Notes: a model not told the origin generated them from the letters alone. Positions 3,537 through 43,647 are shown, counted from the stretch's first letter. The stretch: DNA of 64,000 nt from Candidatus Marinacidobacterales bacterium (GCA_965219415.1 CBDCNP010000002.1:4352001-4416000); one strand, 5' to 3'. Made by a program: numbers and translations.

Positions 3537-3537
3537 T

Positions 3538-8513: not shown

Positions 8514-8564
8514 ATTTTTCTCCAGCCTGGATCGAGGTCTTCGCCCAGGGAGCGTGGCATCCCG

Positions 8565-14231: not shown

Positions 14232-14626
14232 AACGCTACTACCTGCGCATCTCCCGCTATACGATTCTCGTCGGCGGCGCCTTGGCTTTTCTCGGCTCGG
14301 TGCCGGATGTTGCGCTAATATTGGAGCTGGTCGCCTACGCCCTCGCTATTGTCGGGGCCAGTTTCTTTTTCCCATTGCTGGTCGGTTTGACGAACCGCCG
14401 CGTTTCCACGCAAGCGGCGGTCGCGTCCTGCGTCTGGGGAGGACTCACGACTGCGGCTTGGACGGTATTGACCCTGGCGGGCGTGTCTTGGGTCAAGGTC
14501 GTCCACCCGATTCTGCCCGGGCTCTTTATTTCCGGGCTGCTCATGTTTACCTTGACGCCGTTGGGACAACCGGTCCCGAGTGAAGCCCTACGGCGCTTTT
14601 TTCCGGAAGAAGCTAACGGAGGATGA
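14232..14626 (+). pseudogene. Sodium:solute symporter C-terminal fragment
   Basis: Hydrophobic helices, GASFFFPLLVGLTNRRVSTQAAVAS and VHPILPGL. The 5' end is replaced by a MITE. Confidence 0.6.
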
Positions 14627-14630
14627 AAGA

Positions 14631-15233
14631 ATGAAGGTTGGTATCGTTGTCTTCGATAAATTCTTGACCAGTGAAGTTACCGCGCCCATCGAGATCTTCG
14701 CGAAAGCAGGGAAGAAGGGGTCGGTTCCGTTCGAGCCCTTTCTCGTCGCAGAAGAGAAGAAGGTCGTCGTGAGCGAGGAAGGCCTGCGCGTCGAGCCAGA
14801 CTACGACTTCGCGAATTGTCCACCGATAGATGTCTTAGTCGTCCCGAGCGGTCTCGACGTGGAGCCACTGTTGGCCAACAATAAGCTGATCGGATTCATC
14901 AAGGACCGCGCCGAAAAAGCGAAATACGTCGCCAGCAATTGCGCCGGGGCTTTCCTGCTCGGCAAGGCGTGCCTTCTCGAGGGTCGGCGCGTCACGACCT
15001 ACATCGGCGGGACCGAGGACCTGGCAAAACGTTTCCCCGAGGCCAAGGTTGTCGACAACGAGCACATCGTCACCGACGGCAACATGATGAGCTCGATTGG
15101 GGAACTGATGACCTACGACGCGTCCCTAGCTTTGGTAGCTCAGATCGCTGGGCAGGAAACCGCCGACAAAACCGCCGAAGCGCTCTACTACTTCCCGTGG
15201 GGGAAAACTGCGTCGTCATCGAAGAGAATTTGA
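14631..15233 (+). CDS. DJ-1/PfpI family protein
   Basis: MKVGIVVFDKFLTSEVTAPIEIF, DVLVVPSG, ASNCAGAFLL (nucleophile Cys). Confidence 0.9.
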   Translation: MKVGIVVFDKFLTSEVTAPIEIFAKAGKKGSVPFEPFLVAEEKKVVVSEEGLRVEPDYDFANCPPIDVLVVPSGLDVEPLLANNKLIGFIKDRAEKAKYVASNCAGAFLLGKACLLEGRRVTTYIGGTEDLAKRFPEAKVVDNEHIVTDGNMMSSIGELMTYDASLALVAQIAGQETADKTAEALYYFPWGKTASSSKRI

Positions 15234-20975: not shown

Positions 20976-21283
20976 GGGCAGCCGACCCTGCGGGCTGCGG
21001 ACACGATCAAGGAATACAGCCAGTCCGATGGCGACCTCGACCTGTCCGGCCTAGTCAAATCGCTGAAGGAGGAGACCCGGGCCTGCAGCGAAGGCGACCT
21101 GAAGCGGGCGGAGGCCATGCTCACGGCACAGGCCCACACGCTCGACGCCATTTTCAACAAGATGGCGGTGCTGGCCATCAACGCTAAGTACATGGACCAG
21201 ATGGAACCCTTCCTGAAGGTGGGCCTGCGGGCGCAGTCCCAATGCCGGGCCACCTGGGAGTCGCTGGCGACGATTAAGAACCC
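20976..21283 (+). pseudogene. Fragment of a conserved phage/MGE-type hypothetical protein
   Basis: AEAMLTAQAHTLDAIF...GLRAQSQCRATWESLATIKNP. Confidence 0.45.
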
Positions 21284-22482
21284 CGTCTGGTCAAAATACC
21301 CGAACGCCCATCGGGTCAGCAGTTTGCACCTTTCCCAAGGCTGCTTGAATCCGCCATCGCGGTCGGATACGTATTCCAGTTCAGCGGAAGGAGTCGCGAT
21401 GGACTGGAAGACCATGCTGAGCTACATCTCAGGGTCCGTGGATGAGGAGTTGCTCCTGCGTAACGAGTATCTTGTGGCCGAGAATCGAGTTCTTCGAAAT
21501 CAGCTCCGGGGTCGCTTGCACCTGACCGATGGCGAACGGCGGTCTCTGGCCGAGCTCGGAAAGCGTCTGGGTAAGCAAGCCCTTGATGAGATCGCGAGTA
21601 TCGTGAACCCCGACACGATCCTAGGTTGGCACCGGAGGATTGTCGCGAAGAAGTTCGATAGCTCCAAGAACCGTCCGTATCCAGGGCGACCGCGAATCGA
21701 CGCCGACATCGAAGAGCTGGTGGTGCGTCTCGCCAAGGAGAACAACTCCTGGGGTTACGACCGGATTGCCGGGGCGCTAGCCAACCTCGGGCATGAAGTG
21801 GCCGACCAAACCGTCGGTAACATTCTGAAACGCCACGGCATTCCGCTCGCACCAGAGCGTCGGAAGACCACGACGTGGAGGGAATTCATCCGCTCGCACA
21901 TGGACGTGCTCGCGGCGACAGATTTCTTCACCGCGGAAGTGTGGACTCAGGGCGGGTTGGTGACGTACTACGTTCTGTTCTTCATGCACCTGGCTACCCG
22001 TCGAGTCCACGTCGCCGGCATCACGCCGCATCCGAACGAACAGTGGATGACTCAAGTGGCTCGCAACGTGACCATGGCAGATGTTGGCTTTCTGTCCTCG
22101 AGCCGATACCTCATTCACGACCGGGACTCGAAGTTCTGCGAGTCGTTCCACCGGACCATCGAGGCGGTTGGCGTCGCGCCCGTCAAGCTGCCCGCACGGA
22201 GCCCGGATTTGAACTCGTTCGCGGAGCGCTGGGTGAAGTCAGTCAAAGAGGAATGTCTCTCGAAGCTCATCCTGTTCGGCGAGAAGTCGCTCCGTCATGC
22301 GCTTAGGGAGTACGTCGTCTACTATCATCATGAGAGGAATCATCAAGGCAAGGAGAATCTGCTGCTGTTCCCAGCCAGCGACCCGTTACCTCAGTCCGAG
22401 CGCAAGGTGCGCTCCCGTGAACGGCTTGGCGGGTTGCTACGTTTCTACCATCGGGAAGCCGCATGAGTATTTTGACCTCACG
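21284..22482 (+). mobile_element. Complete rve (integrase-core) IS; transposase CDS 21399-22466
   Basis: IR cgtctggtcaaaatac / gtattttgacctcacg. Motifs WGYDRIAG, ATDFFT, IHDRD, SPDLNSFAERW. Confidence 0.88.
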
Positions 22483-22975: not shown

Positions 22976-24400
22976 CTAGGGCATGGTCGCTAGCCGGGAA
23001 GCGCCAATCAGGGTAGCCGGAGAGAAACCGAAGCGCCCCCATCGTGGCAATATTCTTGAATTGTTCTGGTAGCTTGCGAGCAGTCGTTCTAACGCCTCTT
23101 GGTCTTCGGTCCCCAACACAACCCTTACCCGCGCGAAGTAGCTTTTGGAAACGGACCGCGCAAAAATCTCAAAGGGGCTACCGAAGCGATCCGCGTAGAT
23201 TAGAGTCTCCGGCCACCAGTCGCCTGACTCCAGCTCCGCACGCATGAACGCAACGAAATCCGCTTGCATCAGATAGCGGAAGTCCATTCCCGTACCTTGA
23301 CACCGTTCCTTTAGCAGGTCAGCTCGAAGCGACACACGCCCCAGCTTCATTCTGTTGTTGCGATGTTCGAGTGACTTCAGATGCTCTTGAAATACGGAAA
23401 ACCCTGCCATCACATCGGCTCCAGACGCCGAGCGCTCTGGACAATAGTAGGGAGTTGCAAGGAACAGGTTCGCCTCGTCGAATCGCTCGTGCTTCAGAAA
23501 GACACCAAGGGCACAGAGGAACAGCTCGTGGATAACGAATCTGAAGTTATCGAAATCCCCCTCTTTCCACGAGCTTATCTCTTGTGGCCTGTTCATGTAA
23601 GGAACCAGGCTCTCTAACAATCTGTGAAGCCGCCGCACGAAATTCGCACCGGGAGCGTGACGGGCGACTGCGGTAAAGACCTGAAGCAATTCGTTGCGGT
23701 AGGGGAGAAACTCTGCAATGCTCTTAACGACCGCTTCGTCAAAGTCGCCTTCGGCGTCTACAATCCTGAACCGTTCAAGATTTGATGTCACCAAGTCACA
23801 GTACTCATCAAGTAAACCCTCTGCGTGTGCCTTGTGATTAGTCAGACCATCGAGACATCGCCTGAACAACGCCGTGGAGCCGAGTGACACGTGATCACCC
23901 TCAGAGACGAACGTGGGACGTGTTCCAAGCTCTGGGCGCCTATAGAGTGGTTTGTTGAAGATCCATCTAAGCAGTTGTTCGAACTCGTCGGAGTACCGAT
24001 CGGGCTCACTGAGATCGATGTAGATGCGTGACTTGTAGTACGTCGGAAGGTAAGGCTCGCCGTCCGGACTCCTTTCCATCACAACAGCAACGAACTTGTC
24101 TTGAGCTTGCTTGTCATACACCTCCTTGGAGACGATTTGTGTTTCGGTTCCTACCCCTCCTTCTCGACCGTCAGCCTTAGTGGCATATGTTTCGTCGCAA
24201 ACAATGGCGACCTTTGCGACTTCTGGGTCGGTGACCATCCGTTCCATAAACGCGACGGCGTCGTGGCCCTCCTTTAGATCCCATTTGTCAAGGATCACGT
24301 CGACGCCCGACTGGCGAAGTTCGGTGGCCAGTTCTAGCACGCGCTGCTCGTGCGGTGAGTTGGACCAGCTATACGAGACGAAGAGTTTCGGAGCACTCAC
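22976..24400 (-). CDS. SEFIR/TIR-like domain protein (candidate anti-phage NADase)
   Basis: PKLFVSYSWS, GVDVILDKWDLKEG, FMERMV, GGVGTETQI, followed by a helical C-terminal region. GTG start at 24400. Confidence 0.85.
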   Translation of the reverse strand: MSAPKLFVSYSWSNSPHEQRVLELATELRQSGVDVILDKWDLKEGHDAVAFMERMVTDPEVAKVAIVCDETYATKADGREGGVGTETQIVSKEVYDKQAQDKFVAVVMERSPDGEPYLPTYYKSRIYIDLSEPDRYSDEFEQLLRWIFNKPLYRRPELGTRPTFVSEGDHVSLGSTALFRRCLDGLTNHKAHAEGLLDEYCDLVTSNLERFRIVDAEGDFDEAVVKSIAEFLPYRNELLQVFTAVARHAPGANFVRRLHRLLESLVPYMNRPQEISSWKEGDFDNFRFVIHELFLCALGVFLKHERFDEANLFLATPYYCPERSASGADVMAGFSVFQEHLKSLEHRNNRMKLGRVSLRADLLKERCQGTGMDFRYLMQADFVAFMRAELESGDWWPETLIYADRFGSPFEIFARSVSKSYFARVRVVLGTEDQEALERLLASYQNNSRILPRWGRFGFSPATLIGASRLATMP

Positions 24401-24554
24401 GAGCAGCCACCTGATACGCAACCGAGAGAATAGGAGGGGCCAGTGGCGATCGGCACCGCCGAGAGACACCCGTGGGGTGCGAAGTCGTCTTGGGGTAGAT
24501 GCCAGTCGCTCACGCGAGCACCGCTTTCTGGCCGGTTTTCATTGATGTTTTGTG

Positions 24555-25506: not shown

Positions 25507-26878
25507 GAGCTACCCTCAGAAGGTGTGGAAATAAAGTAAAGGCGGAGTAACCTTCCGCGTCACGAAACACGGCCTGAAGGGGCCAACGGAAGGAGACACC
25601 GCCATGAAGGAAAAGACCACAGGACGACGGAGCTCGTCAAGGGTGGCTTGGGAGTCGCTGGAGAAGTGGGCGAGGCTTGAGATCCAGGATTGGGTGCAGG
25701 AGCTGATGGTAGCCGAAGTCACGGAGCTTCTCGGGCGTGAGAAATCGGAGAGACGGAAGCCCGTGGACACAACGGCGGGCTATCGAAATGGATACGGTAA
25801 GCCTCGGAAGCTGACGATGAGCGTGGGCACAGTGACGGTTCGCCGGCCGAGAGTACGGGACGTGGAGGAGAGGTTCGAAAGTCGAGTGCTTCCGCTGTTC
25901 AAGCGTCGGAGCGAAACGGTGAGCGAGTTGATTCCGGAGCTGTACCTGCATGGACTAGCTCACGGAAATTTCGATCTGGCGCTCCGCGGGCTTCTAGGGG
26001 AGGACGCTCCACTTTCTCCCAGCACGGTGTCGCGGCTGAAACAGAAATGGCAGGGAGAGTACGAGCAGTGGCTAGCTCGCCCACTGGACGAACTCGAGCT
26101 CGTGTCCCTGTGGGTAGATGGCGTGTACGTGAAGGCCGGCCTTGAGAAGGACAAGGCGGCGGTGCTAGTTGCGGTTGGTGGCCTGTCCGACGGGACGAAA
26201 ATCGTCCTGACGCTGGAGGCCGGGCATCGAGAATCCGAAGCGTCATGGTCGTCGCTGCTACGGAGACTGAAGAAGCGCGGTCTGAGATGTCCCCGTTTGG
26301 TGATCGGTGACGGTCATCTCGGCATCTGGGCCGCGACCCGAAACGTATTTCCAGAAGCTGAGGAACAGCGGTGCTGGAACCACCGAATCCTCAACGTACT
26401 GGACCGGATTCCGAAAAGGGACCAGGCGCAGGCCAAGCCGCTGTTGACGGCGATCCCCTACGCCACCAGCCTGCAGGAGTGCGAGACGAAGAAGGCCAAG
26501 TTCCAGGATTGGTGCTTGCGCAAGGGTCTTCCGGGGGCCGCGCACGTGCTCGACGAGGACTGGGAGCGGATGGTCAGCTTCTATTCCTTTCCCAAGCCTC
26601 ACTGGCAACACCTTCGCACGAGCAACGTCGTGGAGTCACCGTTCGCTGCACTGAGATTGAGAACGGATGCGGCCAAAAGGTTCAAGAAAGTCGAGTCCGC
26701 CACTGCGACAATCTTCAAACTGCTTCTGGTTGCGGAGAAGAATTTTCGCCGGCTCAACGCACCGGAGCTGATGCGAGAGGTTCACCTGGGCGTTCGATTT
26801 GAAGATGGAGACAGGGTAACGGAGTCGTCGAAGGTTGCTGCTGCCTGAACTTTTTTACACACCTATTGACAAGAGCTC
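25507..26878 (+). mobile_element. IS256-family element; transposase CDS 25604-26848
   Basis: IR gagctaccctcagaaggtgtgg / acacacctattgacaagagctc. TSD TCGACTAG (25499-25506 and 26879-26886). Motifs YRNGY, WVDG, GDG, QRCWNH, RTSNVVES. Confidence 0.92.
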
Positions 26879-27909
26879 TCGACTAGGTAGTCATCTGCAT
26901 GGTGACGACCCGCCCGCCCAAGACGATTGTAAAGCCCACGGCCCTTGGCCCGGTCGCAAACACAGACACTAAGTTGCTGATTTATGGCCTATTTCAAAAG
27001 GGCCGAGTTTTGGCACAGGACGGGATTCGAGCGGACGTCGACGGCGACGGTCGCACGGAGTACGTGCCTCATGACGATCAAACCGGCCCGCGCCCGCCGG
27101 AGCATTCCTACGTGCTCTTCGCGACGGGCAGTCCGACCACGGAGCTCGGCACGACGCGGCGCTTCTACTTCGGCGGCAACATTTACGAAGGCTGGTCCAC
27201 CAGAAGAAAAGCGAAATGGCTCAACGCGGTCCGAAGAGATGAATGAATGAGCCAACGGGCAAAATCCCGCTTTGGTGCCCAGAATCCCCGCCAATCCTCA
27301 CTTTTGACCAAAAAGTAGCAAAAATGCTGAAGGCACCCGATGTTCTGCGGAGTATTCAGAAGGCGCTATTGGCGGCGGGTCATCCAGTAGACGAGTTCGG
27401 GCATCCGCGTCCGACTGCATAGAGTCCGTGTCCGCCCCGCCTATCGCGGAGCACCCGTGGCCGAATCACGGCGGAGGACAACGATGGAGCCTGACCAGAA
27501 GCCCGCTGCGCTGGATGGTTCCCCCGCTGATGCTCAGGGTGCCGACTATAGTAATGATGAAGGACACGCAACCGATCCACTGATGGGTGCTTCCGCAGTC
27601 AAGTGTTGGCGGCCGTCGCGTAACCTGTTCGCGTGCTAGAGTTTTAGCCTGATTTCGATAGACGCAGTTCTTTCGTCGATGCCGGCTGGGCCGAGTTTTG
27701 GCACAGGACGCGGTGGGCGTTCGAGCCGGATTCGAGTTGGGCTTCAATCCGCTTCTCTCGATGGCAACCTCAACCTCCTGGACGCCTGAAAGACGGGTGT
27801 TCACGATGGCTGAAATACACAACCGCCTCGGTCGGATCGTTCTAGAAGTCGCGATATCCTCCACTTGCTACAGAGGCAGACACCAGGTAGGGTATGCGCA
27901 AGTTTGGAT

Positions 27910-30603
27910 ATGACGTCGCCAGCACCATCCGCTGCCTTGTTGAGACCAGATTCGCTCCAAGCGCTGCTCCGTTTGTGCGGGTATCGGCCGAGCCTCCTTA
28001 GAAACGATTTTCCCTTTGACGACCATCTGACGGTTCCGCTGGTTGGCTTCGCGCAATCTCCTGTGGACTCGCGGTCGGCTTGCGTTGCGGTTCTTTCGAC
28101 TACCTCTGAACCTCGTCAGGCCGTAGAAGCCTGCAGGCTTCTCGGAGCCCCGCTTGTTTTCGTCTGCATTGCGGACACACTGCAATGGTGGAAGCAAGGG
28201 ACGCAGTCAGCGGAACTGCTTGAGAGCATACCGGCACAGCAGGTTGCCAATTTTTTCAAACGACATGCCGACGAGTTGTCACCCAGCGCAATCTATCGCG
28301 CGAAAACGTGGGGACGCTTTCAAAGTCAGCACCAATTGGCGTTCGTCGACCTTGGTCTGATGCCGTTGGTCGAAGAGGAAGTAGGGCGAGCCATAGGGCG
28401 CCTTATTGAGCGTAACGTCGTTGATCTCAAGCGCAGATTGGGGTGGCATGATGTGTCGAGTTCTCAGGGGCATTGGCTCTTGAAAGTCATTTTTTGGCTT
28501 CTCTCTGGAAAAATTCTCCGGGATAAAGAAATCCCGAATTTCCAGGACCTCGATCTCCATGACGTCAGAACCGTCTTTGCCCGGGTGGCGAGCCATTACG
28601 GAAGCGACCCCATTGAAATCGAATCGGAGAAGAAACTCGAAGCTCTCAACGAATCTGCCCGCGTTTTCGACGAGTTCAGCCGCCTCACGCTAACGACGAC
28701 AGAAGCGTTGGCGTACGTCTACGAGAACACGCTCGTCTCAAAAGACACACGTTCTTCGTTGGGAACGCATAGTACGCCATCCTTTCTTGTGGACTACATC
28801 GTGGGCAACTTGGCCGATTGGATAGAGGAAATACCAGTCAACGACAGAAGCGTCTTCGAGCCCGCGTGTGGTCATGCAGCGTTTCTTGTTTCAGCCATGC
28901 GTCTGTTGACCGAGCTGCTCCCGCCTGAAAAGGCGACACCAAGCCGTCGAGGCCCCTATTTGAGACGTCGTCTCCACGGCACCGAAATAGATGCTTTTGC
29001 TCTCGAACTCGCCCGCCTTTCGCTCACGCTTACGGACATTCCGAATCCGGACGGGTGGGACTTGAAGGTCGAAGACATGTTTGTTGGGAACACTCTCTCA
29101 GAGCAGGCACGGCGCAACACCATACTTCTAGCGAATCCGCCCTTCGGTAATTTTACGCCTCAACGTCGTGACCGATATCGACAACAAGGAACAAACATTG
29201 GTGTCGTCAATCAGGCGAGTGAAATGCTTCGGCGTGCCATCCCGGAACTACGATCCGGTAGCGTGTTCGGCGTCGTCGTGCCGCAGACGTTTCTTCACAG
29301 TGCATACGGCGAGAATGTTCGACAATTGCTTGTCGAAACATGTGAACTGGCCGAAATTTCTCTATTCCCTGACAAAGTCTTCTCCTTTTCAGATGCCGAA
29401 TCCGCAGTTCTTCTTGGTCGTCGTCGTCACCGTTCCAAGTTCCGTCGTGCCTCCGTGTCGCGACTTGAGCCCGACCCTAATTACTACTGTCAATCGGTTC
29501 GTTACCGCCGCGTTCGCGAACACGAAATGGAAGCGTTCCGAACCTCCTACCAAGCCTCGACCGGAAGACCCGTTCGGCAGGCACGGTTCTCGGAGGAAGA
29601 TCGATGGAACCTACGCCTTCCCGAACTGGAATCAGTTTGGCAAGCCCTGAGCCACTTGCCACCGATTGCCGCTGTTGCCACACTGGGACAGGGGTTGTTC
29701 TTTCGCGGAAAAGACTTACCCTCTGGAGTCCCAACCTCTTCGAATGAGCCTTTCCGCGGAGCGCAGCCGGGATACACTCGACTTGGGCGTGGCATTCAAC
29801 TGCATGAGCATCCGACGCGCTCTTGGCTAAATCTGGCGGATGAAGCAATAGATCGACGCGTAGCTGGTGCGACAATCGGGGTCTCGCAGGTGCTACTGAA
29901 CTACGCCCCAGTGAGCAGAGGTCCATGGCGACTCAAGGCGCTTATCGACCGAGCGGGACACCCAGTCACGAACCGGTTCATTACCGTTCGGCCAAACTCC
30001 TGCTCGATCGAAGTGCTCTGGGCTATCTTGAATTCACCCGTCGCTAATGCGTATGCTTTCGTTTACCTAGGGAAACGAGACAACATAGTCGGTAAGGTCC
30101 GGAACATTCCGTTTCCATCGGCCACGAATTTGCGGGCAGTCGAAATGGCTGTGGCCGCATACCTAGACTCTGCGAGGGCGAACACGGACGCGACGATACT
30201 TCGCACCCTGATGCTCGAAATCGACGCTGAAGTCCTAAAGGCCTACGCACTACCCGTGCAGCTGGAGCGATCACTGCTAGATTTGTTTTCAGGGTACAGA
30301 CGTGTTGGTGTTCCCTTCGAGATGAACCGCTACTTCCCTAGAGCGCTCAGCCATCCAATGCGGCTCGCCGACTATTTGAAATTCTCTGAAGATTGGGAAA
30401 GAACAAATCGCGAACGACACACGCTAGTACACAAAGAACTCGAGAGAACGCTGAGCGACGAAGATAAGATTCGACTCGATGCGCTGCAGGCGTACGCGGA
30501 CTACCACCTCGACCGAGTTGCTCCTCGGCCTTTCAGTGTTCTCGATGAAGTAGAAGGGCTCATCGTTTCACGCAAAGACTCTCGGGAACGACAGACGGAA
30601 TGA
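27910..30603 (+). CDS. Large N6-adenine DNA methyltransferase (type IIG/Eco57I-like layout) with a C-terminal helical extension
   Basis: GTHSTP, VFEPACGHAAFL (motif I), GTEID, LANPPF (motif IV), then a TRD-like region (AILNSPVANAY). Confidence 0.85.
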   Translation: MTSPAPSAALLRPDSLQALLRLCGYRPSLLRNDFPFDDHLTVPLVGFAQSPVDSRSACVAVLSTTSEPRQAVEACRLLGAPLVFVCIADTLQWWKQGTQSAELLESIPAQQVANFFKRHADELSPSAIYRAKTWGRFQSQHQLAFVDLGLMPLVEEEVGRAIGRLIERNVVDLKRRLGWHDVSSSQGHWLLKVIFWLLSGKILRDKEIPNFQDLDLHDVRTVFARVASHYGSDPIEIESEKKLEALNESARVFDEFSRLTLTTTEALAYVYENTLVSKDTRSSLGTHSTPSFLVDYIVGNLADWIEEIPVNDRSVFEPACGHAAFLVSAMRLLTELLPPEKATPSRRGPYLRRRLHGTEIDAFALELARLSLTLTDIPNPDGWDLKVEDMFVGNTLSEQARRNTILLANPPFGNFTPQRRDRYRQQGTNIGVVNQASEMLRRAIPELRSGSVFGVVVPQTFLHSAYGENVRQLLVETCELAEISLFPDKVFSFSDAESAVLLGRRRHRSKFRRASVSRLEPDPNYYCQSVRYRRVREHEMEAFRTSYQASTGRPVRQARFSEEDRWNLRLPELESVWQALSHLPPIAAVATLGQGLFFRGKDLPSGVPTSSNEPFRGAQPGYTRLGRGIQLHEHPTRSWLNLADEAIDRRVAGATIGVSQVLLNYAPVSRGPWRLKALIDRAGHPVTNRFITVRPNSCSIEVLWAILNSPVANAYAFVYLGKRDNIVGKVRNIPFPSATNLRAVEMAVAAYLDSARANTDATILRTLMLEIDAEVLKAYALPVQLERSLLDLFSGYRRVGVPFEMNRYFPRALSHPMRLADYLKFSEDWERTNRERHTLVHKELERTLSDEDKIRLDALQAYADYHLDRVAPRPFSVLDEVEGLIVSRKDSRERQTE

Positions 30604-31196
30604 ATGGATATGACTATCCTTCCGGACCACATGTCCGGCGTCATGGCCCACAAGGCTATCGTAATTATGAGAGCTACAGAGACTGGCTTCGTGACGAATT
30701 CATGTTTCGTTGCGTCTATTGTCTTCAGCGCGAGCAATGGTATGGCCGAAGCGGAGCATTTCACATCGATCACTTCGTTCCAGTTTCGGTAGATCCTGGG
30801 AAAAAATGCGAGTACTCGAACGTACTCTATGCTTGTTCGGCATGCAACGAAGCCAAAGGTGACGCGGTCGGCATGCCCAACCCATGCGATGTCACGCTCT
30901 CAAAGAGTCTACGTGTCAAGAACGATGGGTCCATCAAGCCGCTCAATCGTGACGGTGAATTGCTCGTTCGGATACTGCGTCTTAACAGCGAGTCGAACGT
31001 ACGCTATCGCTCACAATGGATGCGAAAATTACGGACCCTTCGCGAGTTCAATCGAGAGCTTTACGAGGAATTCCTAGGGTTTCCGGAAAACCTGCCTGAT
31101 TTACGAAGGAAGCGCGTTAAGAATACGAAGCCAAACGGGGCACAGAACTGCTATTTCGCTCTGAGGGAACGAGGAGAACTTCCTAGAGTCTACTGA
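30600..31196 (+). CDS. HNH endonuclease
   Basis: FRCVYC...FHIDHFVP...NVLYACSACNEAK. ATGA overlap with the MTase stop. Confidence 0.9.
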   Translation: MNGYDYPSGPHVRRHGPQGYRNYESYRDWLRDEFMFRCVYCLQREQWYGRSGAFHIDHFVPVSVDPGKKCEYSNVLYACSACNEAKGDAVGMPNPCDVTLSKSLRVKNDGSIKPLNRDGELLVRILRLNSESNVRYRSQWMRKLRTLREFNRELYEEFLGFPENLPDLRRKRVKNTKPNGAQNCYFALRERGELPRVY

Positions 31197-31462: not shown

Positions 31463-31779
31463 CGTCCTGTGCCAAAACTCGGCCCTCTTGAAATAGCCGA
31501 TAAATCAGCAGCTTAGCGTCTGTGTTTTGCGACGGTGCCAAGGGCTGTGGGCTTTACAATCGTCTGGCCCGAGGGTGTTATCTTCGGATCCATCATGACG
31601 TACCATGTGCAAATCCTACTGTTGGTCAGGCAGCCGTTGTTCGATCGGGCAGCCCTGCTGCTCACACAGACCTCATGGGTGCTTCCGCCATTAAGTGTTG
31701 GTAAAATGACGCTAAGACTTTACAGTGCATTAAATTACAGCCATGGTCTTTCAAAAGGGCCGAGTTTTGGCACAGGACG
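31463..31779. repeat. Copy of the 2996-3270 segment (rve left end + partial MITE), followed by an inverted rve end
   Basis: Same junction, gacctcatg|ggtgcttccgcc, as at 3210. Confidence 0.75.
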
Positions 31780-32641
31780 GGAGCGGGATCCGAGCCTTAC
31801 ACAACAGGAGGCGTTGGCTCGCATCGTCGAAGAACTACGCGAGCTGCGGGAGCGATCCGCCGATCATGAGGACCAGCTCACCGGTCTAAAGAGTTATGGC
31901 GATATGGCCCGGCTGAACCCCGCAGGCCTTACAGGTATAGCGCGCCCTGGCTCGGGCCTCAGCGAGTCTAGTGACTTGTCTCGCGCCCTAGAAGGAGCCT
32001 GGGATGTGGACGACGACGACGTCCATGCTGCGCGCTGCGATCAAGCGGCGCTAGACAAGTTCTCGGGCGTGGCCAGGAAGCACCCCACTTTCCCGTTTGC
32101 TCACTACGCCCTCGCAATCTGCGCTTTAAGTAACGAGAACCCCACCTGGCGCCAGCACGCCGAGCGCGCCCTGGCGATCCTGGAACACACCACACAGATC
32201 GCCGGACGGGCCGGGGCCCACGACCAAGCTTTTGAGTTCTTGCTAGCGCGGCTAGCAGGCGAGCAGTGAACGCTGGGGCGCAACTTCCTTTGGAGGTGCC
32301 GCGCCCATCGGCTAGATTGGAGCGGGCAGCGCGGCACGCCCCCTGGGCGGCCAGCATGCGTCAGGTCGTGGGCGACAGAGCCGCCCGTTGGCGCGCTCGT
32401 GCTCGTCCGCTGCTGCCCAGTCGTCCATCAGCCGCCGCCGCGCCAGCGACGGGTCTTCTGCTGCTCGGAACCGACCACGTTACGTCGACTGGGCTCAAGA
32501 GCCGCGTAGGCCTCGTAGGTACGTTTTGGTCTCTCCGTTGACCAAATGAACAACAACTGACATGGGAGTTCTCCTCGCGAGGCAGCAAAAAAGGCTGCAC
32601 AAAGCTATTTTATCAGGCCCATCGTGTCCAAAAACACAAAC

Positions 32642-33902
32642 TGAAGTGACCCCGCTTTCGTGGACAGGTTAAGAGTTAGGGATCAAGCGTCGCGATAGTA
32701 CCTCCTTTCGAATTGGATAGGCGAGCAATAGTCGATGGCGGAGTGTCGTCGTCGCGGGTTGTACCAGCCTTCGATGAAATCGAAGGTCGCCATGCGCGCC
32801 TCAGCGTGGTAGCGAAACGACCGGCGCTCGATCAGCTCGCACTCGAGCGTCGCGAAGAAGCTCTCGCACATCGCATTGTCGTAACAGTCCCCGACCGAAC
32901 CCATCGACGGTCGCACCCCGGCCTCCCGGCATCGCTGGCCGAACGCTAGTGACGTGTACTGCGTGCCCTGGTCCGAGTGATGGATGACGTCGCCGGGCTT
33001 GCGTTGGAACAGCGCCATGTCGAGGGCGCTCAAGACGAGCGACGTCCGCAGGTGGGTAGCCATTGCCCATCCGACGATGCGTCGGCTGAAGGCGTCCAGC
33101 ACGACGGCGAGGAACAAGAAGCCCGACCACGTGGGCACGTAGGTGATATCGGCGACCCACAGGCGGTCGGGCCGGCGGTCCACCTCGAAATTCCTGTCGA
33201 CGAGGTCGGGGGCGGGACGGGCGTCGTCACAGCGAATCGTAGTGTGCGCCCTCTTGCGCCGGTGAACACCTTGAATGCCAGCCTCGCGCATCAGCCGCGC
33301 TACACGCTTGCGTGAGACGTGGAGCTCGTGTGTCTCTCGTAGCTCGTGGAGAATCCTCGGCGCGCCGTACGTGCTCCGCGACGCGGTGTGAATCGCCCGG
33401 ATCTTCTCAAGCAACTCCGCATCCGACACCGCGCGGGCCGACGGGGCACGCTCAAGCCACGCATAGTAGCCGCTGGCGGAGACGTCCAGCAGTCGGCACA
33501 TCGTGGCAACCGGTAGTGAATCCTGGTTCGCCCTCACGAATCGGAAGGCTTCGGTGGTACCGACTCGGTCTCCCGAGCGAACCAGGCCGCGGCTTTTGAG
33601 AGGATCTCCCGCTCCAACCGTAGTTGACGGTTCTCCCGTCGCAGGCGGCGGAGCTCCGCACGCTCCTCACTCGTCAGACCGTCCTGCCTGCGACCCTCGT
33701 CGAGATCCGCCTGGTTCACCCAGTTCCGGATCGTCTGGCCCGAGGGCTCAAACTCTCGCGCCAGCTCTTCGGAGCCGCGGCCAGCTCGCACCAGCTCTAC
33801 CATTTGGCGCCGGAATTCGGCCGCGTATCTGTTTCCCTGCTTTGACATCGTGGACTCCTGTCTCCCAAAGGATTAGGTGTCCACGAAAGCGGGTCAAGTC
33901 CA
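32642..33902 (-). mobile_element. IS3-family element A, complete (orfA 33534-33848, orfB 32683-33537)
   Basis: TG...CA ends with IRs; 3-bp TSD AAC; overlapping orfA/orfB. Confidence 0.92.
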
Positions 33903-34045: not shown

Positions 34046-35281
34046 TTAGTCCTCGTCGAGCCGATTGAAGGCTTTTACCGCCTGGCCTATCGCGGTCAGC
34101 CATTCATTGGAGTGTTCGAGTAGATCGCCGACCTTCGGCTTTCTCCCGTCGACGACCACGCGCCATGTCCAATAGTTGCCGTCCTTCTTCACCGTCGCTC
34201 CGCGAACGAGCCGGGCCACGGCCTCCAGGTAATCCACCCCTACTTGCGGATCGCCGCTTTGCTTCGCGTAATCGACCACGTAGTTCGTGTTCAGATCTCC
34301 ATTCGGAAACAACGTGCCGAAGTTAATTTTGCTTCCATCGCTCCGATGCCAGTTCAGGATGTACGAGGCGCGTGACAAGGTGACTTCGAAATCGTCGCCC
34401 TGGGCCTCGTAGCTCTGGAAGAATGCCCGCACGCGCTCCGGTAGTGCCGGATCGACCTGTTCCATCTGTTCGTAGAACTCCTTCTCCGTGATCTGCGTCC
34501 TGCCTCTTATGTCGCCTGACGCTGGCGGCGGGTCCTCCACCACGACCTCCGCGTCGGCCCGTCGCACGACAGCACGCTCGATTTCAACCGTCTTGGCGAG
34601 TACCCTCGGCTCTACAATGATTCCGCCCGCCGAGCCCTCCGGCATGTCGAAGATGGCCAACTCCACGAGCCCGAACGCGATTCGAATGCCGGCGGACTGG
34701 TTGAGATAATCCGCAATTCGTTCAACTCCTTCGCGTATGCCGTCGCCCACCACGATCAGGAGAAAGCGGCCGCTGGTAAGGCTACGCGCGACGTCGTCCA
34801 CGAAGGTCGCCTCGTCAATCGTATCGTGCTGCGCCCGCACGATATCGAACAACGCGTTGGTGTTTCTGGAACGTCTTGCAGCCCGGCAAACGGCATTGTT
34901 CAGCTCATCGTACGACCAGCGACTGATTTCCTTCGCGTAGTCGAGGATCTGGGAGACAGCACCGCGCCGTGCCTCCGGGTTACGCCACAGCTTGCACTCA
35001 ACGATGGACAATCGACCCTCCTCGCTCATGTAGGCGAGGTCGATCGGCCCGGCCGCGGTTGGCAACTCCCGACAAAGCGGTGTGGCAGGAGCGAACGCAG
35101 GATCGATTTCTCCGATGGGAAGGATTTCAGGAGTCTCGAACAGAAGCTGTTGCAGCCAGTCCTCGTCATACCCGTTACCGCCGGACCCGATCTCCAGTCG
35201 ACGCCGGTGCAACGGAACCGCGCGGCTTCCCTTAAGTTTTGGGAGGTAGACTGTCTGACCGTATCTGGAACGGTTGGACAT
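34046..35281 (-). CDS. NucS/EndoMS-like PD-(D/E)XK nuclease domain protein
   Basis: EDWLQQLL, GPIDLAY, IVECKLWRNPEARR, QILDYA. Confidence 0.75.
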   Translation of the reverse strand: MSNRSRYGQTVYLPKLKGSRAVPLHRRRLEIGSGGNGYDEDWLQQLLFETPEILPIGEIDPAFAPATPLCRELPTAAGPIDLAYMSEEGRLSIVECKLWRNPEARRGAVSQILDYAKEISRWSYDELNNAVCRAARRSRNTNALFDIVRAQHDTIDEATFVDDVARSLTSGRFLLIVVGDGIREGVERIADYLNQSAGIRIAFGLVELAIFDMPEGSAGGIIVEPRVLAKTVEIERAVVRRADAEVVVEDPPPASGDIRGRTQITEKEFYEQMEQVDPALPERVRAFFQSYEAQGDDFEVTLSRASYILNWHRSDGSKINFGTLFPNGDLNTNYVVDYAKQSGDPQVGVDYLEAVARLVRGATVKKDGNYWTWRVVVDGRKPKVGDLLEHSNEWLTAIGQAVKAFNRLDED

Positions 35282-35699: not shown

Positions 35700-36962
35700 T
35701 GACCTTGCCCAGGAAAAGTGGACGGGTTGATTATCTCGCATGAGCAGTTTTGAGATCATGAATCCGTTCGAACACCATTGGGCTGTTGTAATCGAGTGAC
35801 GAGTGGAGTCGATATGGATTGTAGAACCCCTCGATGTAGCTCGCGACCGCGTCTTTGGCCATACGTCGTGTTGGCCAACTACGTCGGTGGAGGAGTTCGG
35901 TCTTGAGTGTGCCGAAGAAGCTCTCGGTCACGGCGTTGTCCCAGCAATCACCCTTGCGGCTCATCGAGCACACGATGCCGTACTCATCGAGCACGGCCTG
36001 GTAGGTCGCAGCCGCGTATTGAGTACCACGGTCTGAATGATGCACCAAGCCACTTTCCGGCAGGCGGCGCCCCAAGGCTATGTGAAGCGCCTCGAGAGCA
36101 AGCTCCGCGCGCAGGTGGGGCTGCATCGCCCAGCCGACGACACGACGCGAGAACAGATCGAGGATGACCGCCAAGTAGAGCCAGCCTTCCCAAGTCCGGA
36201 TGAAGGTTATGTCCGTCACCCAGAACTGGTTCGGTCGTTCGGCTTCGAAGTTCCGACCGAGCACGTTGGGTGCGACAGGACGATCGTGCTTGCTGTCGGT
36301 CGTGCGGCGAAAACGCTTGCTGGGCAGGCCCTGCAGACCCATCTCACGCATCAGCCGTGCCACTCGCTGCTTGCCCACCTCGACGTTCTCCCCGTCAAGC
36401 TGGCGACGTACACGCTCCCTGCCGTAGGTACCACGGCTATGGGCGTGGATCGCTTGGATGCGCAGCTTCAGCTTCCCATCCTCACACTGTCGCTTGCTGG
36501 GCGCGCGCTTCATCTGAGCGTAGTAGCCGCTGGTCGATACCCTCAGGACTCGGCACATCACCCGCACCGGGTAGTTGGCCCGCTCCGCGTGAATGAAATT
36601 GAATCTCATTCGCTTTCTTTCGCGAAGAAGGCCGCCGCCTTTTTTAATATTTCTCGCTCTTGCTCCAACGTGCGCACTCGACGTCGTAGCGAACCCAGCT
36701 CATCACGTTCCGCCGTCGTCAGAGCCTCGCGTGGACCTTCACCGTGATCAACTTTGTATTGTTTCACCCAGTTTCGAAGGGATGATTCCGTCAGGTCCAG
36801 TTCCTTAGCGACCTGGCCGATGCTGCGCTCGCCTTCCCTGAACAACCGGACCGCTTCCTTCTTGAACTCCCCCGTGAACTTCCTGCGTCGTCGTTTTCCC
36901 ATGGACGCCTCCAGGCGCATTGTCGCGCCTCGGTTGGTGTCCACAAAACCCGGGCAGGGCCA
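35700..36962 (-). mobile_element. IS3-family element B (orfA 36606-36902, orfB 35731-36609), inserted in an IS1 3' remnant (35543-37061)
   Basis: TG..CA ends; TSD GTT; A6G at ILKKAAAFF; WVTDITF, HSDRGTQY, WDNAVTESFF. Confidence 0.9.
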
Positions 36963-39359: not shown

Positions 39360-40759
39360 GGTGATGTCTTAAGATTCCTGTCAAAGAAAAACGATGTATG
39401 GTTCCCCAAGCTCAAACCCGTCCCCGTCATGGGGACAGAAAAGGAGAACCATACATCATGGGAAAGGTACTACCGAGTCAGCGATTGCTCAAGCAGTTCG
39501 AGGAACAACTGGTATTTGGGGAGATGAATCTCTCGGAGATCGTCCGGTCGGGAGCTCAGATGATGCTTCAATATGCGTTGGAGCGCGAGGTGACGGAGGC
39601 GTTGGGTCGAAACTACTATGAGAACGCTCCGGCAACGACGAAGGAGAAGGGACGACGCAACGGGTATGAGTCGCATCGGGTCCTCACGGGCGAGGGAGCG
39701 GTGACGGTGCAAGTGCCGCGGGTACGAGAAACAGAGAAGGTGTTTCAGTCAAAGATTCTCGACGCCTACGTGAGCCGGACCGAGAAACTCGATGAACTGA
39801 TCGCGCGGATGTACGTCCACGGGATGTCGACGCGTGACATTGAGGCGACGTTCGCGGACGTGCTGAGCGGCACGGGTGTCTCGAAGTCGGTGGTGAGCCG
39901 GGTCACACGGTGTCTGTCGGAGGATTTCGAGGCGTTTCGAAAACGGGATCTCTCGAACGAGAAGCTGTTGTATCTCGAGCTCGACGGCACGTACCTGCGC
40001 TACCACCAAGGAGCGGAGAGGAAAGAGCCCATCCTCGTTGCGACCGGCTATCGCGCTGATGGGACGCGAGTTCTTCTTCATATCGGTGTCGGCAACCGAG
40101 AATCCTACGAGAACTGGAAGGGGTTCTTGCAGGAGATAGTGGCCCGAGGAATGAGGGAGCCGTTGCTCATCGTGACGGACGGGAATCCTGGAGTGCTCAA
40201 AGCGATCGCAGAGGTCTTCCCTCGAAGCCTCAAGCAACGTTGCCAGAAGCACCGCCTCGAGAACATCCTGGGCAAGGCTCCGAAGGAAGTGCGCGACGAA
40301 CTCAAGGCGGCCATCCTTGAGTCGTTCCATGCGAACAGCTACGAGCAAGGGCTGAAGAAGGGTCGGGAGGTGATCGCTCGGTACCGTCAACGATTCCCGA
40401 GCGCGATGAAGTGCATGGAAGAGACCCTCGAAGCATGTCTTCAGGCGCTACGCCTTCCTGCGGCGCATCACAAAAGGCTTCGCACGTCGAATCTACTTGA
40501 GCGCACGTTCGGAGAGCACAAACGTCGCACAAAGGTCATTCCTCACTTCTTCACCGAGGAGGCCGCGATGAAACTCTCGTTCGCTGTGCTCTTGGCCGCC
40601 GCAAACAAATGGCGCGGCGTGAGGATGGATGTCTTCGCCGCTAGGAAAGTCGAGGAGCTTCGCAACGAGCTTCTCCCGCAAGGCACGTCGGAGGAATCAG
40701 CAGCTTAACCGAGCGCGGGGAACCGTACGGAGATTTGACAGGAAAATTAAGACTTGACC
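39360..40759 (+). mobile_element. Second IS256-family element; transposase CDS 39458-40708
   Basis: 26-bp IR ggtgatgtcttaagattcctgtcaaa / tttgacaggaaaattaagacttgacc. TSD TCGACGAG, with the empty site visible at ~15364. A solo left end lies at ~37083-37129. Confidence 0.93.
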
Positions 40760-40897: not shown

Positions 40898-41500
40898 TCA
40901 AATTCTCTTCGATGACGACGCAGTTTTCCCCCACGGGAAGTAGTAGAGCGCTTCGGCGGTTTTGTCGGCGGTTTCCTGCCCAGCGATCTGAGCTACCAAA
41001 GCTAGGGACGCGTCGTAGGTCATCAGTTCCCCAATCGAGCTCATCATGTTGCCGTCGGTGACGATGTGCTCGTTGTCGACAACCTTGGCCTCGGGGAAAC
41101 GTTTTGCCAGGTCCTCGGTCCCGCCGATGTAGGTCGTGACGCGCCGACCCTCGAGAAGGCACGCCTTGCCGAGCAGGAAAGCCCCGGCGCAATTGCTGGC
41201 GACGTATTTCGCTTTTTCGGCGCGGTCCTTGATGAATCCGATCAGCTTATTGTTGGCCAACAGTGGCTCCACGTCGAGACCGCTCGGGACGACTAAGACA
41301 TCTATCGGTGGACAATTCGCGAAGTCGTAGTCTGGCTCGACGCGCAGGCCTTCCTCGCTCACGACGACCTTCTTCTCTTCTGCGACGAGAAAGGGCTCGA
41401 ACGGAACCGACCCCTTCTTCCCTGCTTTCGCGAAGATCTCGATGGGCGCGGTAACTTCACTGGTCAAGAATTTATCGAAGACAACGATACCAACCTTCAT
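40898..41500 (-). CDS. DJ-1/PfpI family protein (duplicate)
   Basis: Translation identical to 14631-15233. Confidence 0.9.
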   Translation of the reverse strand: MKVGIVVFDKFLTSEVTAPIEIFAKAGKKGSVPFEPFLVAEEKKVVVSEEGLRVEPDYDFANCPPIDVLVVPSGLDVEPLLANNKLIGFIKDRAEKAKYVASNCAGAFLLGKACLLEGRRVTTYIGGTEDLAKRFPEAKVVDNEHIVTDGNMMSSIGELMTYDASLALVAQIAGQETADKTAEALYYFPWGKTASSSKRI

Positions 41501-41899
41501 TCTTTCATCCTCCGTTAGCTTCTTCCGGAAAAAAGCGCCGTAGGGCTTCACTCGGGACCGGTTGTCCCAACGGCGTCAAGGTAAACATGAGCAGCCCGGA
41601 AATAAAGAGCCCGGGCAGAATCGGGTGGACGACCTTGACCCAAGACACGCCCGCCAGGGTCAATACCGTCCAAGCCGCAGTCGTGAGTCCTCCCCAGACG
41701 CAGGACGCGACCGCCGCTTGCGTGGAAACGCGGCGGTTCGTCAAACCGACCAGCAATGGGAAAAAGAAACTGGCCCCGACAATAGCGAGGGCGTAGGCGA
41801 CCAGCTCCAATATTAGCGCAACATCCGGCACCGAGCCGAGAAAAGCCAAGGCGCCGCCGACGAGAATCGTATAGCGGGAGATGCGCAGGTAGTAGCGTT

Positions 41900-42070: not shown

Positions 42071-43266
42071 CGTGAGGTCAAAATACTCATGCGGCTTCCC
42101 GATGGTAGAAACGGAGCAACCCGCCAAGCCGTTCACGGGAGCGCACCTTGCGCTCGGACTGAGGTAACGGGTCGCTGGCTGGGAACAGCAGCAGATTCTC
42201 CTTGCCTTGATGATTCCTCTCATGATGATAGTAGACGACGTACTCCCTAAGCGCATGACGGAGCGACTTCTCGCCGAACAGGATGAGCTTCGAGAGACAT
42301 TCCTCTTTGACTGACTTCACCCAGCGCTCCGCGAACGAGTTCAAATCCGGGCTCCGTGCGGGCAGCTTGACGGGCGCGACGCCAACCGCCTCGATCCGGT
42401 GGAACGACTCGCAGAACTTCGAGTCCCGGTCGTGAATGAGGTATCGGCTCGAGGACAGAAAGCCAACATCTGCCATGGTCACGTTGCGAGCCACTTGAGT
42501 CATCCACTGTTCGTTCGGATGCGGCGTGATGCCGGCGACGTGGACTCGACGGGTAGCCAGGTGCATGAAGAACAGAACGTAGTACGTCACCAACCCGCCC
42601 TGAGTCCACACTTCCGCGGTGAAGAAATCTGTCGCCGCGAGCACGTCCATGTGCGAGCGGATGAATTCCCTCCACGTCGTGGTCTTCCGACGCTCTGGTG
42701 CGAGCGGAATGCCGTGGCGTTTCAGAATGTTACCGACGGTTTGGTCGGCCACTTCATGCCCGAGGTTGGCTAGCGCCCCGGCAATCCGGTCGTAACCCCA
42801 GGAGTTGTTCTCCTTGGCGAGACGCACCACCAGCTCTTCGATGTCGGCGTCGATTCGCGGTCGCCCTGGATACGGACGGTTCTTGGAGCTATCGAACTTC
42901 TTCGCGACAATCCTCCGGTGCCAACCTAGGATCGTGTCGGGGTTCACGATACTCGCGACCTCATCAAGGGCTTGCTTACCCAGACGCTTTCCGAGCTCGG
43001 CCAGAGACCGCCGTTCTCCATCGGTCAGGCGCAAGCGACCCCGGAGCTGATTGCGAAGAACTCGATTCTCGGCCACAAGATACTCGTTACGCAGGAGCAA
43101 CTCCTCATCCACGGACCCTGAGATGTAGCTCAGCATGGTCTTCCAGTCCATTGCGACTCCTTCCGCTGAACTGGAATACGTATCCGACCTCGATGGCGGA
43201 TTCAAGCAGCCTTTGGAAAGCTGCAAACTGCTGACCCGCTGGGCGTTCGAATATTTTGACCAGACG
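42071..43266 (-). mobile_element. Complete rve IS (copy of 21284-22482); CDS 42087-43151
   Basis: Same IRs and a near-identical protein. Confidence 0.88.
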
Positions 43267-43369
43267 CGACCTCCGACGACGAAGAACATCCGTGAGCTCA
43301 TTGTACGCGTGGCGCAGGAGAACCCGATGTGGGGATATACGCGCCTGCGGGGCGCACTCAAGAACCTCA
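43267..43369 (+). pseudogene. rve transposase internal fragment
   Basis: [34 protein letters not shown]. Confidence 0.7.
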
Positions 43370-43647
43370 AACACAGACACTAAGCTGCTGATTTATGGTC
43401 TATTTCAAAAGGGCCGAGTTTTGGCACAGGACGCCATCGAAGGTCGCCGCATCGTTCCGGCACGCCGACGATGAGCGTGGCCGGGTCGTCGGCATCGGAC
43501 AGCTCGGCAGGTCCACAGGCCAACCCAGTGAAAAGGAGGAGGCCGCAAGACATCCCCCCTAAGCCATTCATAAGCAGAAGCTTAACCCAAGAAGGGTGGC
43601 GGTCGCGAACGTTGACTGCCGAGAGACGTTCGGTTACTCTCCAAGAC

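Follow-up and report, generated by a model that had tools for sequence, protein, structure and literature searches.

The stretch of DNA analyzed here, which we call the window, comprises 64,000 nucleotides of one strand of a Candidatus Marinacidobacterales genome (GCA_965219415.1 CBDCNP010000002.1:4352001-4416000), and it carries two overlapping genes that encode an N6-adenine methyltransferase and an HNH nuclease. A first-pass annotation, made by a model from the sequence alone, had described these as an intact 897-aa methyltransferase overlapping an intact HNH gene by an ATGA, and had proposed that they form an undescribed defense module. The description of the genes holds: the overlap can be read directly in the sequence, both products have Pfam matches, and both genes can be regarded as intact because their proteins align end to end with homologues (over 92-99% of the query for the methyltransferase and 98-100% for the HNH protein, best 120 rows in each case). 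From the evidence set out below, the pair looks like an unnamed two-part DNA-cutting defense module made of restriction-modification (RM) and toxin-antitoxin (TA)-like parts. The coordinates of the genes, their domains and the surrounding features are collected in Table 1.

Table 1. Features of the window, in positions counted from its first letter; IS, insertion sequence; ORF, open reading frame
Feature	Position	Strand	Remarks
Methyltransferase gene	27910..30603	+	897 aa from ATG 27910; frame also opens at TTG 27865
N-terminal restriction-endonuclease-like fold, residues ~6-144	27925..28341	+	VIA-align structure matches; without conserved D...(D/E)xK
Helical linker domain, residues 145-260	28342..28689	+	weak matches to type I M-subunit N-terminal helical domain
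Gamma-class N6-adenine methyltransferase core	28702..29568	+	Pfam N6_Mtase, residues 265-553, E 5.9e-18
Target-recognition-like region	29569..30294	+	ends in helix EIDAEVLKAYALP; Foldseek matches
C-terminal helical tail domain, residues 826-895	30385..30594	+	predicted HNH-binding module; match to profile of stand-alone proteins
ATGA, HNH start codon over methyltransferase stop	30600..30603	+	read directly in sequence
HNH nuclease gene	30600..31196	+	198 aa
HNH core with CxxC...CxxC	30711..30863	+	C38, C41, C79, C82 zinc ligands; H58, N74, N83
Helical C-terminal domain of HNH, residues 117-158	30948..31073	+	main predicted contact surface for tail
Dispersed repeat, left copy	26908..27022	.	inverted pair with right copy, 83-92% complementary
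Dispersed repeat, right copy	31463..31578	.	inverted pair with left copy, around module
Further positions of the repeat	26992-27025, 27680-27713, 31749-31782
Mutator-family (IS256-type) transposases	25604..26848, 39398..40708
IS3-type transposases	32683..33848, 35731..36609
rve_3 transposase	21117-22466	+
rve_3 transposase	42087-43370	-
Gene for 497-aa protein with SEFIR/TIR domain	22976..24469	-	N-terminal domain, E 6e-17, 5e-16
DJ-1/PfpI gene	14580-15233	+	Pfam scores identical to other copy
DJ-1/PfpI gene	40898-41551	-	Pfam scores identical to other copy
411-aa ORF	34046-35281	-	intact

The methyltransferase and the HNH gene are each present in a single copy in their own 8.05-Mb genome, and in nature the pair is by no means rare. 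Searches at E<=1e-3 returned 1302 homologues of the methyltransferase among 7999 scored candidates, the best 120 being 56-65% identical to it, and 1114 homologues of the HNH protein among 1139 candidates, the best 120 being 58-65% identical and 198-201 aa long. Where a name is given, these homologues are called 'N-6 DNA methylase', 'HNH endonuclease' or 'hypothetical', and the sources listed for them are Planctomycetota groups; among the genome loci described next, Acidobacteriota and Binatia are represented as well.

The neighborhoods of HNH homologues, which the annotation had marked as a place to look, show a conserved pairing. Across species-representative genomes, 17 loci carry an HNH relative and 15 of these have a methyltransferase directly upstream; one of the 17 is cut by the contig start, and one has its HNH gene cut by the contig end. 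When all ORFs at these loci were compared against each other, only the methyltransferase and the HNH gene were shared across them, the other apparent families being shadow frames over both genes, and no PtuA ATPase was found among the conserved neighbors. Both genes are listed for 14 related genome loci, and in 12 of these the stop and the start share 1 or 4 bp; at L013 and L014 the gene overlaps are longer and uncertain. The methyltransferase and HNH genes are thus a conserved, self-contained two-gene module.

What sets this methyltransferase apart is its C-terminus. The protein runs on for about 100 residues past the helix EIDAEVLKAYALP, which we take to be the typical C-terminus of such enzymes, and the annotation had noted in this extension a helical tail of about 70 residues following the target-recognition-like region. 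The tail sequence quoted there is present, it is kept in all 20 methyltransferase homologues aligned, and an AlphaFold model predicts three helices (829-844, 850-870 and 875-895). Ten residues are invariant among the 20 homologues: W829, N833, R834, R836, L839, L859, Y862, D864, Y865 and P872. The annotation had also pointed, as a likeness it could not verify, to a resemblance between the tail and small stand-alone proteins whose genes lie upstream of those for this HNH subfamily, and here our searches bear it out. An exhaustive phmmer search with residues 795-897 against 1.84 billion representatives gave 183 matches at E<=1e-3, and from the 150 listed we chose the 62 whose match starts no earlier than query position 21. 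Many of the 62 are proteins of 56-130 aa with little beyond the tail domain, which share the motif W-x3-N-(R/K)-x-R-x2-L-I-x-K ... (T/S)-x2-E ... L-Q ... A-D ... A-P-R-P and with it the invariants of the methyltransferase tail. A separate attempt to find close stand-alone tails (residues 800-897 against proteins shorter than 493 aa) gave eight matches that we regard as gene fragments, because all eight carry methyltransferase linker or body sequence.

Such small proteins also stand beside HNH genes. At two genome loci without a methyltransferase (L015 and L016), a small ORF with the tail motif overlaps the HNH start by 4 bp, and at the only provirus locus (L019) a small tail-like ORF ends just before the HNH homology begins. 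We scanned metagenome contigs with an HNH alignment of these three loci and used the best 80 of 270 confirmed loci, a sample picked by likeness to methyltransferase-less HNH proteins, so that proportions within it are not population frequencies. We then made a hidden Markov model (HMM) whose only input was 26 stand-alone small proteins; as a guard against circularity, the L015 and L016 ORFs and the tail in the window were excluded. This model has one match in the window (residues 826-895, E 1.5e-24), and it matches a same-strand domain directly upstream of the HNH gene in 18 of the 18 genome and provirus loci L002-L019 as well as a domain that immediately precedes the HNH gene in each of the 80 metagenome loci, or 98 of the 98 other loci examined. 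With a 29-row HMM, the other matches in the 80 metagenome loci fell only in the same upstream frames or in the tandem module of L049/L050. On this sequence evidence the tail is a portable domain, present with this HNH clade at every locus examined.

The tail domain corresponds to no family in the libraries searched. Against Pfam, its 29 members match 23 scattered families, each in at most two members, and no model fits; against PHROGs there is one weak match (E 7.6e-4), against PADLOC one member of 29 matches (E 0.0077), and the best match of the tail profile to PDB sequences has an E of 0.5, so that no solved structure is found by sequence. Homology of the tail to PtuA's C-terminal extension was considered and dropped, the hhalign probability against the one PtuA-like C-terminus tested being 0.14.

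The annotation had suggested modeling the tail together with the HNH protein, and the prediction supports binding. With 20-row alignments for both the HNH protein and methyltransferase residues 800-897, three runs gave an ipSAE score of 0.90, and no control out of three scored above 0.00. The runs share at least 95% of contacts, and the partner has a predicted local distance difference test (pLDDT) score of at least 79. The ipSAE mark is reached by 116 of 157 solved complexes and by 2 of 215 mismatched pairs, a rough yardstick here since we used our own alignments, and the score is a prediction rather than a measurement. On the tail side, the predicted interface covers residues 830-889 and includes the invariants N833, R834, R836 and D864; on the HNH side, it takes in residues 47-53, residues 79-91, which form the helix bearing C79, C82 and N83, and residues 117-158, which form the helical C-terminal domain. 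The tail is thus predicted to bind the HNH protein, and the sharing of its invariants by the small proteins and the methyltransferase tail implies that the binding mode is probably the same in both.

The HNH protein carries a Pfam HNH match at residues 38-88 (E 4.9e-8), and its N-terminal motif YPxxPHxRRHGPxGY...WLRDEF is present and conserved, the invariants including Y6, P7, R13, H15-P17, W29-F34, H58, N74 and N83. Its best named relatives are the PADLOC models of PtuB, the Septu HNH protein (down to 1.4e-14), and its sole match among PDB sequences is also a PtuB (PDB ID: 8ee7, E 0.0084), the match including the C-terminal region (PtuB 121-193). Under the NCBIfam PtuB model it scores 25.1 bits, against a cut-off of 150. 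By sequence, then, it is a distant PtuB-like relative. In the 198 residues we found no recognizable DNA-recognition domain with Pfam or NCBIfam, and the protein is equally conserved at loci where no methyltransferase is present. A divergent HNH protein at L014 (5908-6516) has lost three of the four zinc-ligand cysteines, at the positions of C41, C79 and C82, and keeps H58, N74 and N83; it is linked to a methyltransferase that is only 30% identical.

These results bear on a further account of the locus, that of an ordinary type II RM system with independent subunits, in which the HNH protein recognizes and cleaves a site by itself and the tail plays no part in this. A methyltransferase gene next to one for an HNH nuclease is a common RM layout, and PADLOC labels the large protein MTase_II or MTase_I. 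However, the lack of a recognizable recognition domain in so short an HNH protein, the constant company of the tail domain, the predicted binding with its clean controls and the equal conservation of the HNH where the methyltransferase is absent all argue against this account, and we consider it very improbable.

The architecture of the large protein was examined with a full-length AlphaFold model made from 20 homologues (mean pLDDT 69.8) and a separate model of the first 260 residues (pLDDT 82.7). The N-terminal domain resembles nucleases: an exhaustive VIA-align search matched it to a type I HsdR nuclease fragment (PDB ID: 3h1t; Z 9.4, root-mean-square deviation (rmsd) 4.4, 119 residues aligned), to the N-terminal nuclease domain of BpuSI (PDB ID: 3s1s; Z 7.9, rmsd 3.7, 122 aligned) and to the restriction-endonuclease-like folds 9y1l, 1wdj and 3ijm (Z 5.9-6.9); Foldseek with this domain alone gave no matches at E<=0.001. 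In the model, a nuclease fold sits where a type IIG enzyme would carry it. The annotation had seen no obvious PD-(D/E)XK motif here, which the alignments bear out at the level of sequence, although the fold itself is present: among 14 close relatives and 6 divergent ones down to 30% identity, no acidic or lysine residue in this domain is invariant. We infer that this nuclease fold is catalytically dead, because the residues of the catalytic motif are missing. The linker has weak matches (Z 5.3-5.7) to 2ar0, 3khk, 2okc and 7vs4, which in a helical region we treat as a lead only.

The methyltransferase itself appears to be maintained. Motif I (FEPACGH, residues 316-322) and motif IV (NPPF, residues 409-412) have counterparts (FEPxCGH and NPP[FY] or NPTF) in all six sequences examined down to 30% identity, and this persistence suggests that methylation matters for the module. 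The methyltransferase and recognition parts of the model match CamA and M.BseCI in Foldseek (E about 1e-13 to 1e-14), the full-length model matches BpuSI, DrdV and BrxX/PglX, and a C-terminal target-recognition domain is predicted from the fold matches to CamA, M.BseCI, BpuSI and DrdV. Mean pairwise identity among the 20 homologues is 0.67 in the N-terminal domain and 0.67 in the linker, 0.73 in the methyltransferase core, 0.58 in the recognition region and 0.59 in the tail; the recognition region thus varies more than the methyltransferase core, yet it is not hypervariable. The Pfam MmeI_Mtase and Eco57I matches to the protein fall under their cut-offs.

For the mechanism, the first-pass annotation had placed two possibilities side by side, an RM system whose nuclease docks on the tail and a guard system in which a phage attack on the methyltransferase releases a toxic HNH protein. 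We favor the first, to which we would give not quite an even chance, and regard the second as possible but doubtful. In the favored reading, the pair is a two-subunit RM-like enzyme with its PtuB-like HNH nuclease docked in trans on the methyltransferase tail. A type IIG-like enzyme would have lost its own nuclease activity, its N-terminal fold being retained but dead, and tail residues 826-895 would bind the helical C-terminal domain and the zinc-finger helix of an HNH protein whose gene would be translationally coupled to that of the methyltransferase. Docking would set the only intact nuclease beside the DNA-recognition part; methylation would mark host sites, and the docked HNH protein would cut unmethylated sites on incoming DNA. 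In this scheme, discrimination of self from non-self by methylation and the choice of DNA as substrate are deductions, and a role in defense is deduced from context and family resemblance only.

This reading explains the conserved methyltransferase motifs and recognition region and the retention of a nuclease fold without its motif, and it fits the precedent of PtuA-PtuB. In Septu and retron Ec78, passages of one study describe the helical C-terminal domain of PtuB as docking on a helical C-terminal extension of PtuA, an extension that is required for toxicity (PMC12819146). Passages of another report that PtuB alone is unstable and not toxic, that PtuA and PtuB together are toxic, and that the complex cuts tRNA-Tyr and plasmid DNA (PMC13376987). 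As far as these accounts go, docking enables rather than silences the nuclease in the nearest characterized relatives.

Several observations nevertheless weigh against an RM-like enzyme. Most relatives of the tail lie in small proteins without a methyltransferase or recognition domain (41 of 71 metagenome groups, described below), so the HNH protein works without methylation there. The ancestral HNH partner looks antitoxin-like, judging from its upstream position and from weak RHH matches in six of eight proteins, and if that partner silences the HNH protein, the same binding mode would silence it here. The identity of 0.58 in the recognition region is less variation than would be expected for an RM family in an arms race; the death of the N-terminal fold is deduced only from its missing motifs; the HNH relatives for which activities are reported in the passages cited above cut tRNA as well as DNA, so that the substrate could be either; and the docking is itself a prediction, made with our own alignments.

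The small partners come most clearly from the metagenome sample, whose 80 loci reduce to 71 non-redundant groups. In 41 groups the partner frame is closed by stops and is at most 225 aa long, in nine it is longer (226-430 aa), in seven it is a methyltransferase fusion, and in 14 the partner is cut by the contig end. The N-terminal domains vary while the C-terminal tail domain stays constant. In one RHH-like class, six of eight proteins chosen by eye had N-terminal Pfam matches to RHH antitoxin families (RHH_5, FitA-like_RHH, CopG_antitoxin and CcdA; E 6e-4 to 0.05, all under the Pfam cut-offs). We do not claim a second N-terminal class, which had seemed Phd/YefM-like, to be such: Pfam matched none of eight, PDB sequences gave none, NCBIfam gave nothing meaningful for these tail-bearing proteins, and a comparison with Phd/YefM in the Atlas produced weak leads only (feature score 0.76, TM 0.24-0.35).

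Other domains also stand ahead of the tail domain in longer frames, putatively single genes, each followed by an HNH gene, as judged by Pfam: REC and PAS at L033 (2563-3492), Sigma70_r2 at L058 (2707-3495) and GNAT at L025 (2026-3240). L049 (with its duplicate L050) carries two small-partner and HNH modules, at 62-454 and 3115-3519, about 3 kb apart on one contig. At L016, a Septu-like pair consisting of a two-frame ATPase and a 234-aa HNH protein (7813-9834, minus strand; identified by eye) lies 1.2 kb from the small-partner and HNH module. The small-partner and HNH pair of L019 lies at the very end of the provirus, flanked (1-768 and 2427-4498) by a 255-aa protein without a PHROGs match and by what appears by eye to be a large serine recombinase.

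Scans for phage-borne relatives yielded this one provirus pair and one orphan, L022, where an IMG/VR contig of 64.9 kb (89% complete according to CheckV) carries a 90-aa tail-like gene at 2971-3243 (HMM E 2.7e-20) and no HNH gene of this family anywhere in the record. The orphan could be a decoy against the HNH module, although it is a single case. L105-L107 were rejected as phage-borne members, having no HMM match or a low-complexity match only.

The main alternative to a docked restriction nuclease takes its strength from these partners. It supposes a guard or TA-like abortive system, in which the tail keeps a toxic HNH protein latent until a phage insult releases it to destroy DNA or tRNA; the insult might be an anti-restriction protein that binds the methyltransferase, degradation of the methyltransferase or a shut-off of synthesis. 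The stand-alone tail genes are laid out as type II antitoxins are, upstream of the HNH start and abutting or overlapping it, their frames are mostly small, and they join varied N-terminal domains, some of them weakly RHH-like, to a constant C-terminal domain that is predicted to bind the HNH protein. Since they share their invariants with the methyltransferase tail, the binding mode is probably common to both; the predicted interface touches the HNH helix that bears C79, C82 and N83, the phage-borne orphan would fit an antitoxin decoy, and in most relatives the HNH protein works without any methyltransferase. On the other hand, a mere holder of a toxin would have no need of methyltransferase motifs and a recognition region conserved down to 30% identity, and the passages on PtuA and PtuB describe a nuclease that needs the helical extension of its partner for toxicity and is not toxic alone. 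The Phd/YefM reading of the second class has no support from Pfam or PDB sequences and only weak Atlas leads, and no trigger is known. A hybrid is possible, in which the tail masks the HNH protein until an encounter of the enzyme with an unmethylated site licenses it; this would reconcile the RM-like and guard readings.

A phylogeny places the methyltransferase form inside the wider family. A quick IQ-TREE analysis, rooted at the midpoint and with SH-aLRT as its only support measure, covered 95 HNH rows; a length and stop filter had removed L029, L046 and L075, three of 97 loci. The window belongs to a clade (support 99) whose 13 rows are all methyltransferase-linked. One half of the tree holds all 24 methyltransferase-linked rows together with 36 small-protein rows, and the other half contains 28 rows, none with a methyltransferase; at least one row labeled as lacking a methyltransferase (L092) has, by eye, a contig-cut one. 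With the midpoint as the only root, the tree is consistent with the methyltransferase fusion having arisen within a family of small-protein pairs.

It may be, though we think it rather unlikely, that the domain of about 70 residues is a universal socket for this PtuB-like HNH clade, carried by varied sensors, with the methyltransferase form as a new class of restriction and phage orphan sockets as decoys. The sensors would include RHH proteins, REC-PAS, extracytoplasmic-function (ECF)-sigma-like and GNAT-like proteins and, most abundantly, the nuclease-dead type IIG methyltransferase, which as an epigenetic reader and writer would license a TA-derived nuclease at unmethylated sites. If the tail were such a general socket, it would provide a searchable handle for further sensor-effector pairs and could be used to tether a nuclease to a chosen protein.

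Compared with described systems, the pair combines known kinds (RM, a Septu-type effector and TA) and is not a categorically new system. Like the type IIG enzymes (BpuSI, 3s1s; DrdV, 7lo5; the MmeI family), the large protein has the order nuclease fold, helical linker, gamma-class N6-adenine methyltransferase and recognition domain; unlike them, it is without conserved PD-(D/E)XK residues, has the additional tail of 70 aa and is accompanied by a separate, translationally coupled HNH gene. With the PtuA-PtuB of Septu and retron type I-A it shares a distantly related HNH protein, including the helical C-terminal domain, and, so far as the passages cited for PtuA-PtuB describe it, a helical C-terminal extension of the larger partner that here is predicted to bind that domain. 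It differs in having no ABC-type ATPase in the module and a tail without detectable similarity to the one PtuA-like C-terminus tested.

The stand-alone relatives are like type II TA modules with RHH antitoxins in that a small gene lies upstream of the nuclease gene, abutting or overlapping it, and its product joins a weakly RHH-like N-terminus to a predicted C-terminal partner-binding domain. In the window, by contrast, the 'antitoxin' is a mere domain on an 897-aa enzyme, and no described TA family with this HNH or tail domain was found in the literature and family libraries searched. The RM enzyme EcoprrI keeps the PrrC anticodon nuclease latent, and a phage attack on EcoprrI sets the nuclease free. 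The idea of a latent nuclease held by a modification or restriction protein is similar, but the proteins are unrelated, and here the holder itself is probably inactive as a nuclease, and a dedicated fused domain would form the link. The large protein also matches the fold of BREX PglX/BrxX over most of its length (9ewz, 8q56 and 8c45), yet it scores far under the curated NCBIfam cut-offs for PglX (20.4 against 500, and 17.5 against 400) and for MAD2 of MADS (22.6 against 720), and the pair has no further BREX genes as conserved neighbors.

That the pair is undescribed, as the annotation had proposed, agrees with our searches: no named defense system in PADLOC or NCBIfam was matched, and a full-text search of the literature found no description of the pair or of a methyltransferase with such a tail, although survey supplements, which lie outside such a search, may list such pairs. 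Those passages of a BREX survey (PMC12839542), a modularity preprint (10.1101/2025.09.30.679545), NetFlax (PMC10440598) and a 2013 defense survey (PMC3632139) that mention HNH proteins and methyltransferases describe other arrangements. In current defense catalogues the pair would appear only as an orphan methyltransferase plus a PtuB-like gene that has no PtuA. One small binding domain would here link type IIG restriction enzymes, Septu-type HNH effectors and type II TA modules, and the pair offers a simple, testable case of a restriction enzyme that has lost one nuclease and recruited another.

The surroundings of the pair are rich in IS elements. Mutator-family and IS3-type transposases lie in the window (Table 1), with rve_3 types elsewhere, and few long ORFs are found in the flanks of the module. 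The annotation had called most neighboring genes shattered; in part this could be checked, from the IS-rich flanks, the scarcity of long ORFs and a dispersed repeat. The repeat is about 125 nt long; two copies in inverted orientation flank the module, and further positions of it are given in Table 1. We had considered the inverted pair as the boundary of a cassette and dropped it as specific evidence: since near-identical copies number at least 44 across the genome (from 520 first-look candidates, with 40 scored), the repeat is not specific to the module. It is either a small mobile element that has greatly multiplied or an IS end.

The module occurs sporadically. Of 401 genomes in the window's phylum, 3 carry it according to an HNH profile, among them the genome of the window and one with a decayed copy, and it is present in three phyla (Planctomycetota, Acidobacteriota and Binatota). 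The decayed copy (L020, G189:C1:856681-860223) has an HNH gene with one internal TGA and one TAA and a disrupted methyltransferase frame.

Such a distribution, the IS-rich location, the decay of L020 and the TA-like layout of the relatives would suit a selfish addiction module, that is, a TA pair welded to a methyltransferase gene, whose loss would leave a long-lived HNH protein to kill the cell; it would have no direct anti-phage role, and epigenetic or other functions would fall to the methyltransferase. However, the contexts are those typical of defense, with a TIR/SEFIR gene in the neighborhood and methyltransferase-less relatives beside a Septu-like ATPase and HNH pair or at the end of a provirus, and the account leaves unexplained an N-terminal domain of nuclease fold kept at 0.67 pairwise identity. 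We consider addiction improbable, although addiction and defense are not mutually exclusive.

Other genes of the window deserve brief mention. The 497-aa protein with the N-terminal SEFIR/TIR domain is defense-like and is encoded 3.4 kb upstream of the module. The intact 411-aa ORF has no Pfam match; its 'IVECKLW' stretch may be an ExK nuclease motif. The two DJ-1/PfpI genes, in opposite orientation and with identical Pfam scores, and the similarly opposed rve_3 transposases suggest a large inverted duplication around the IS-rich region.

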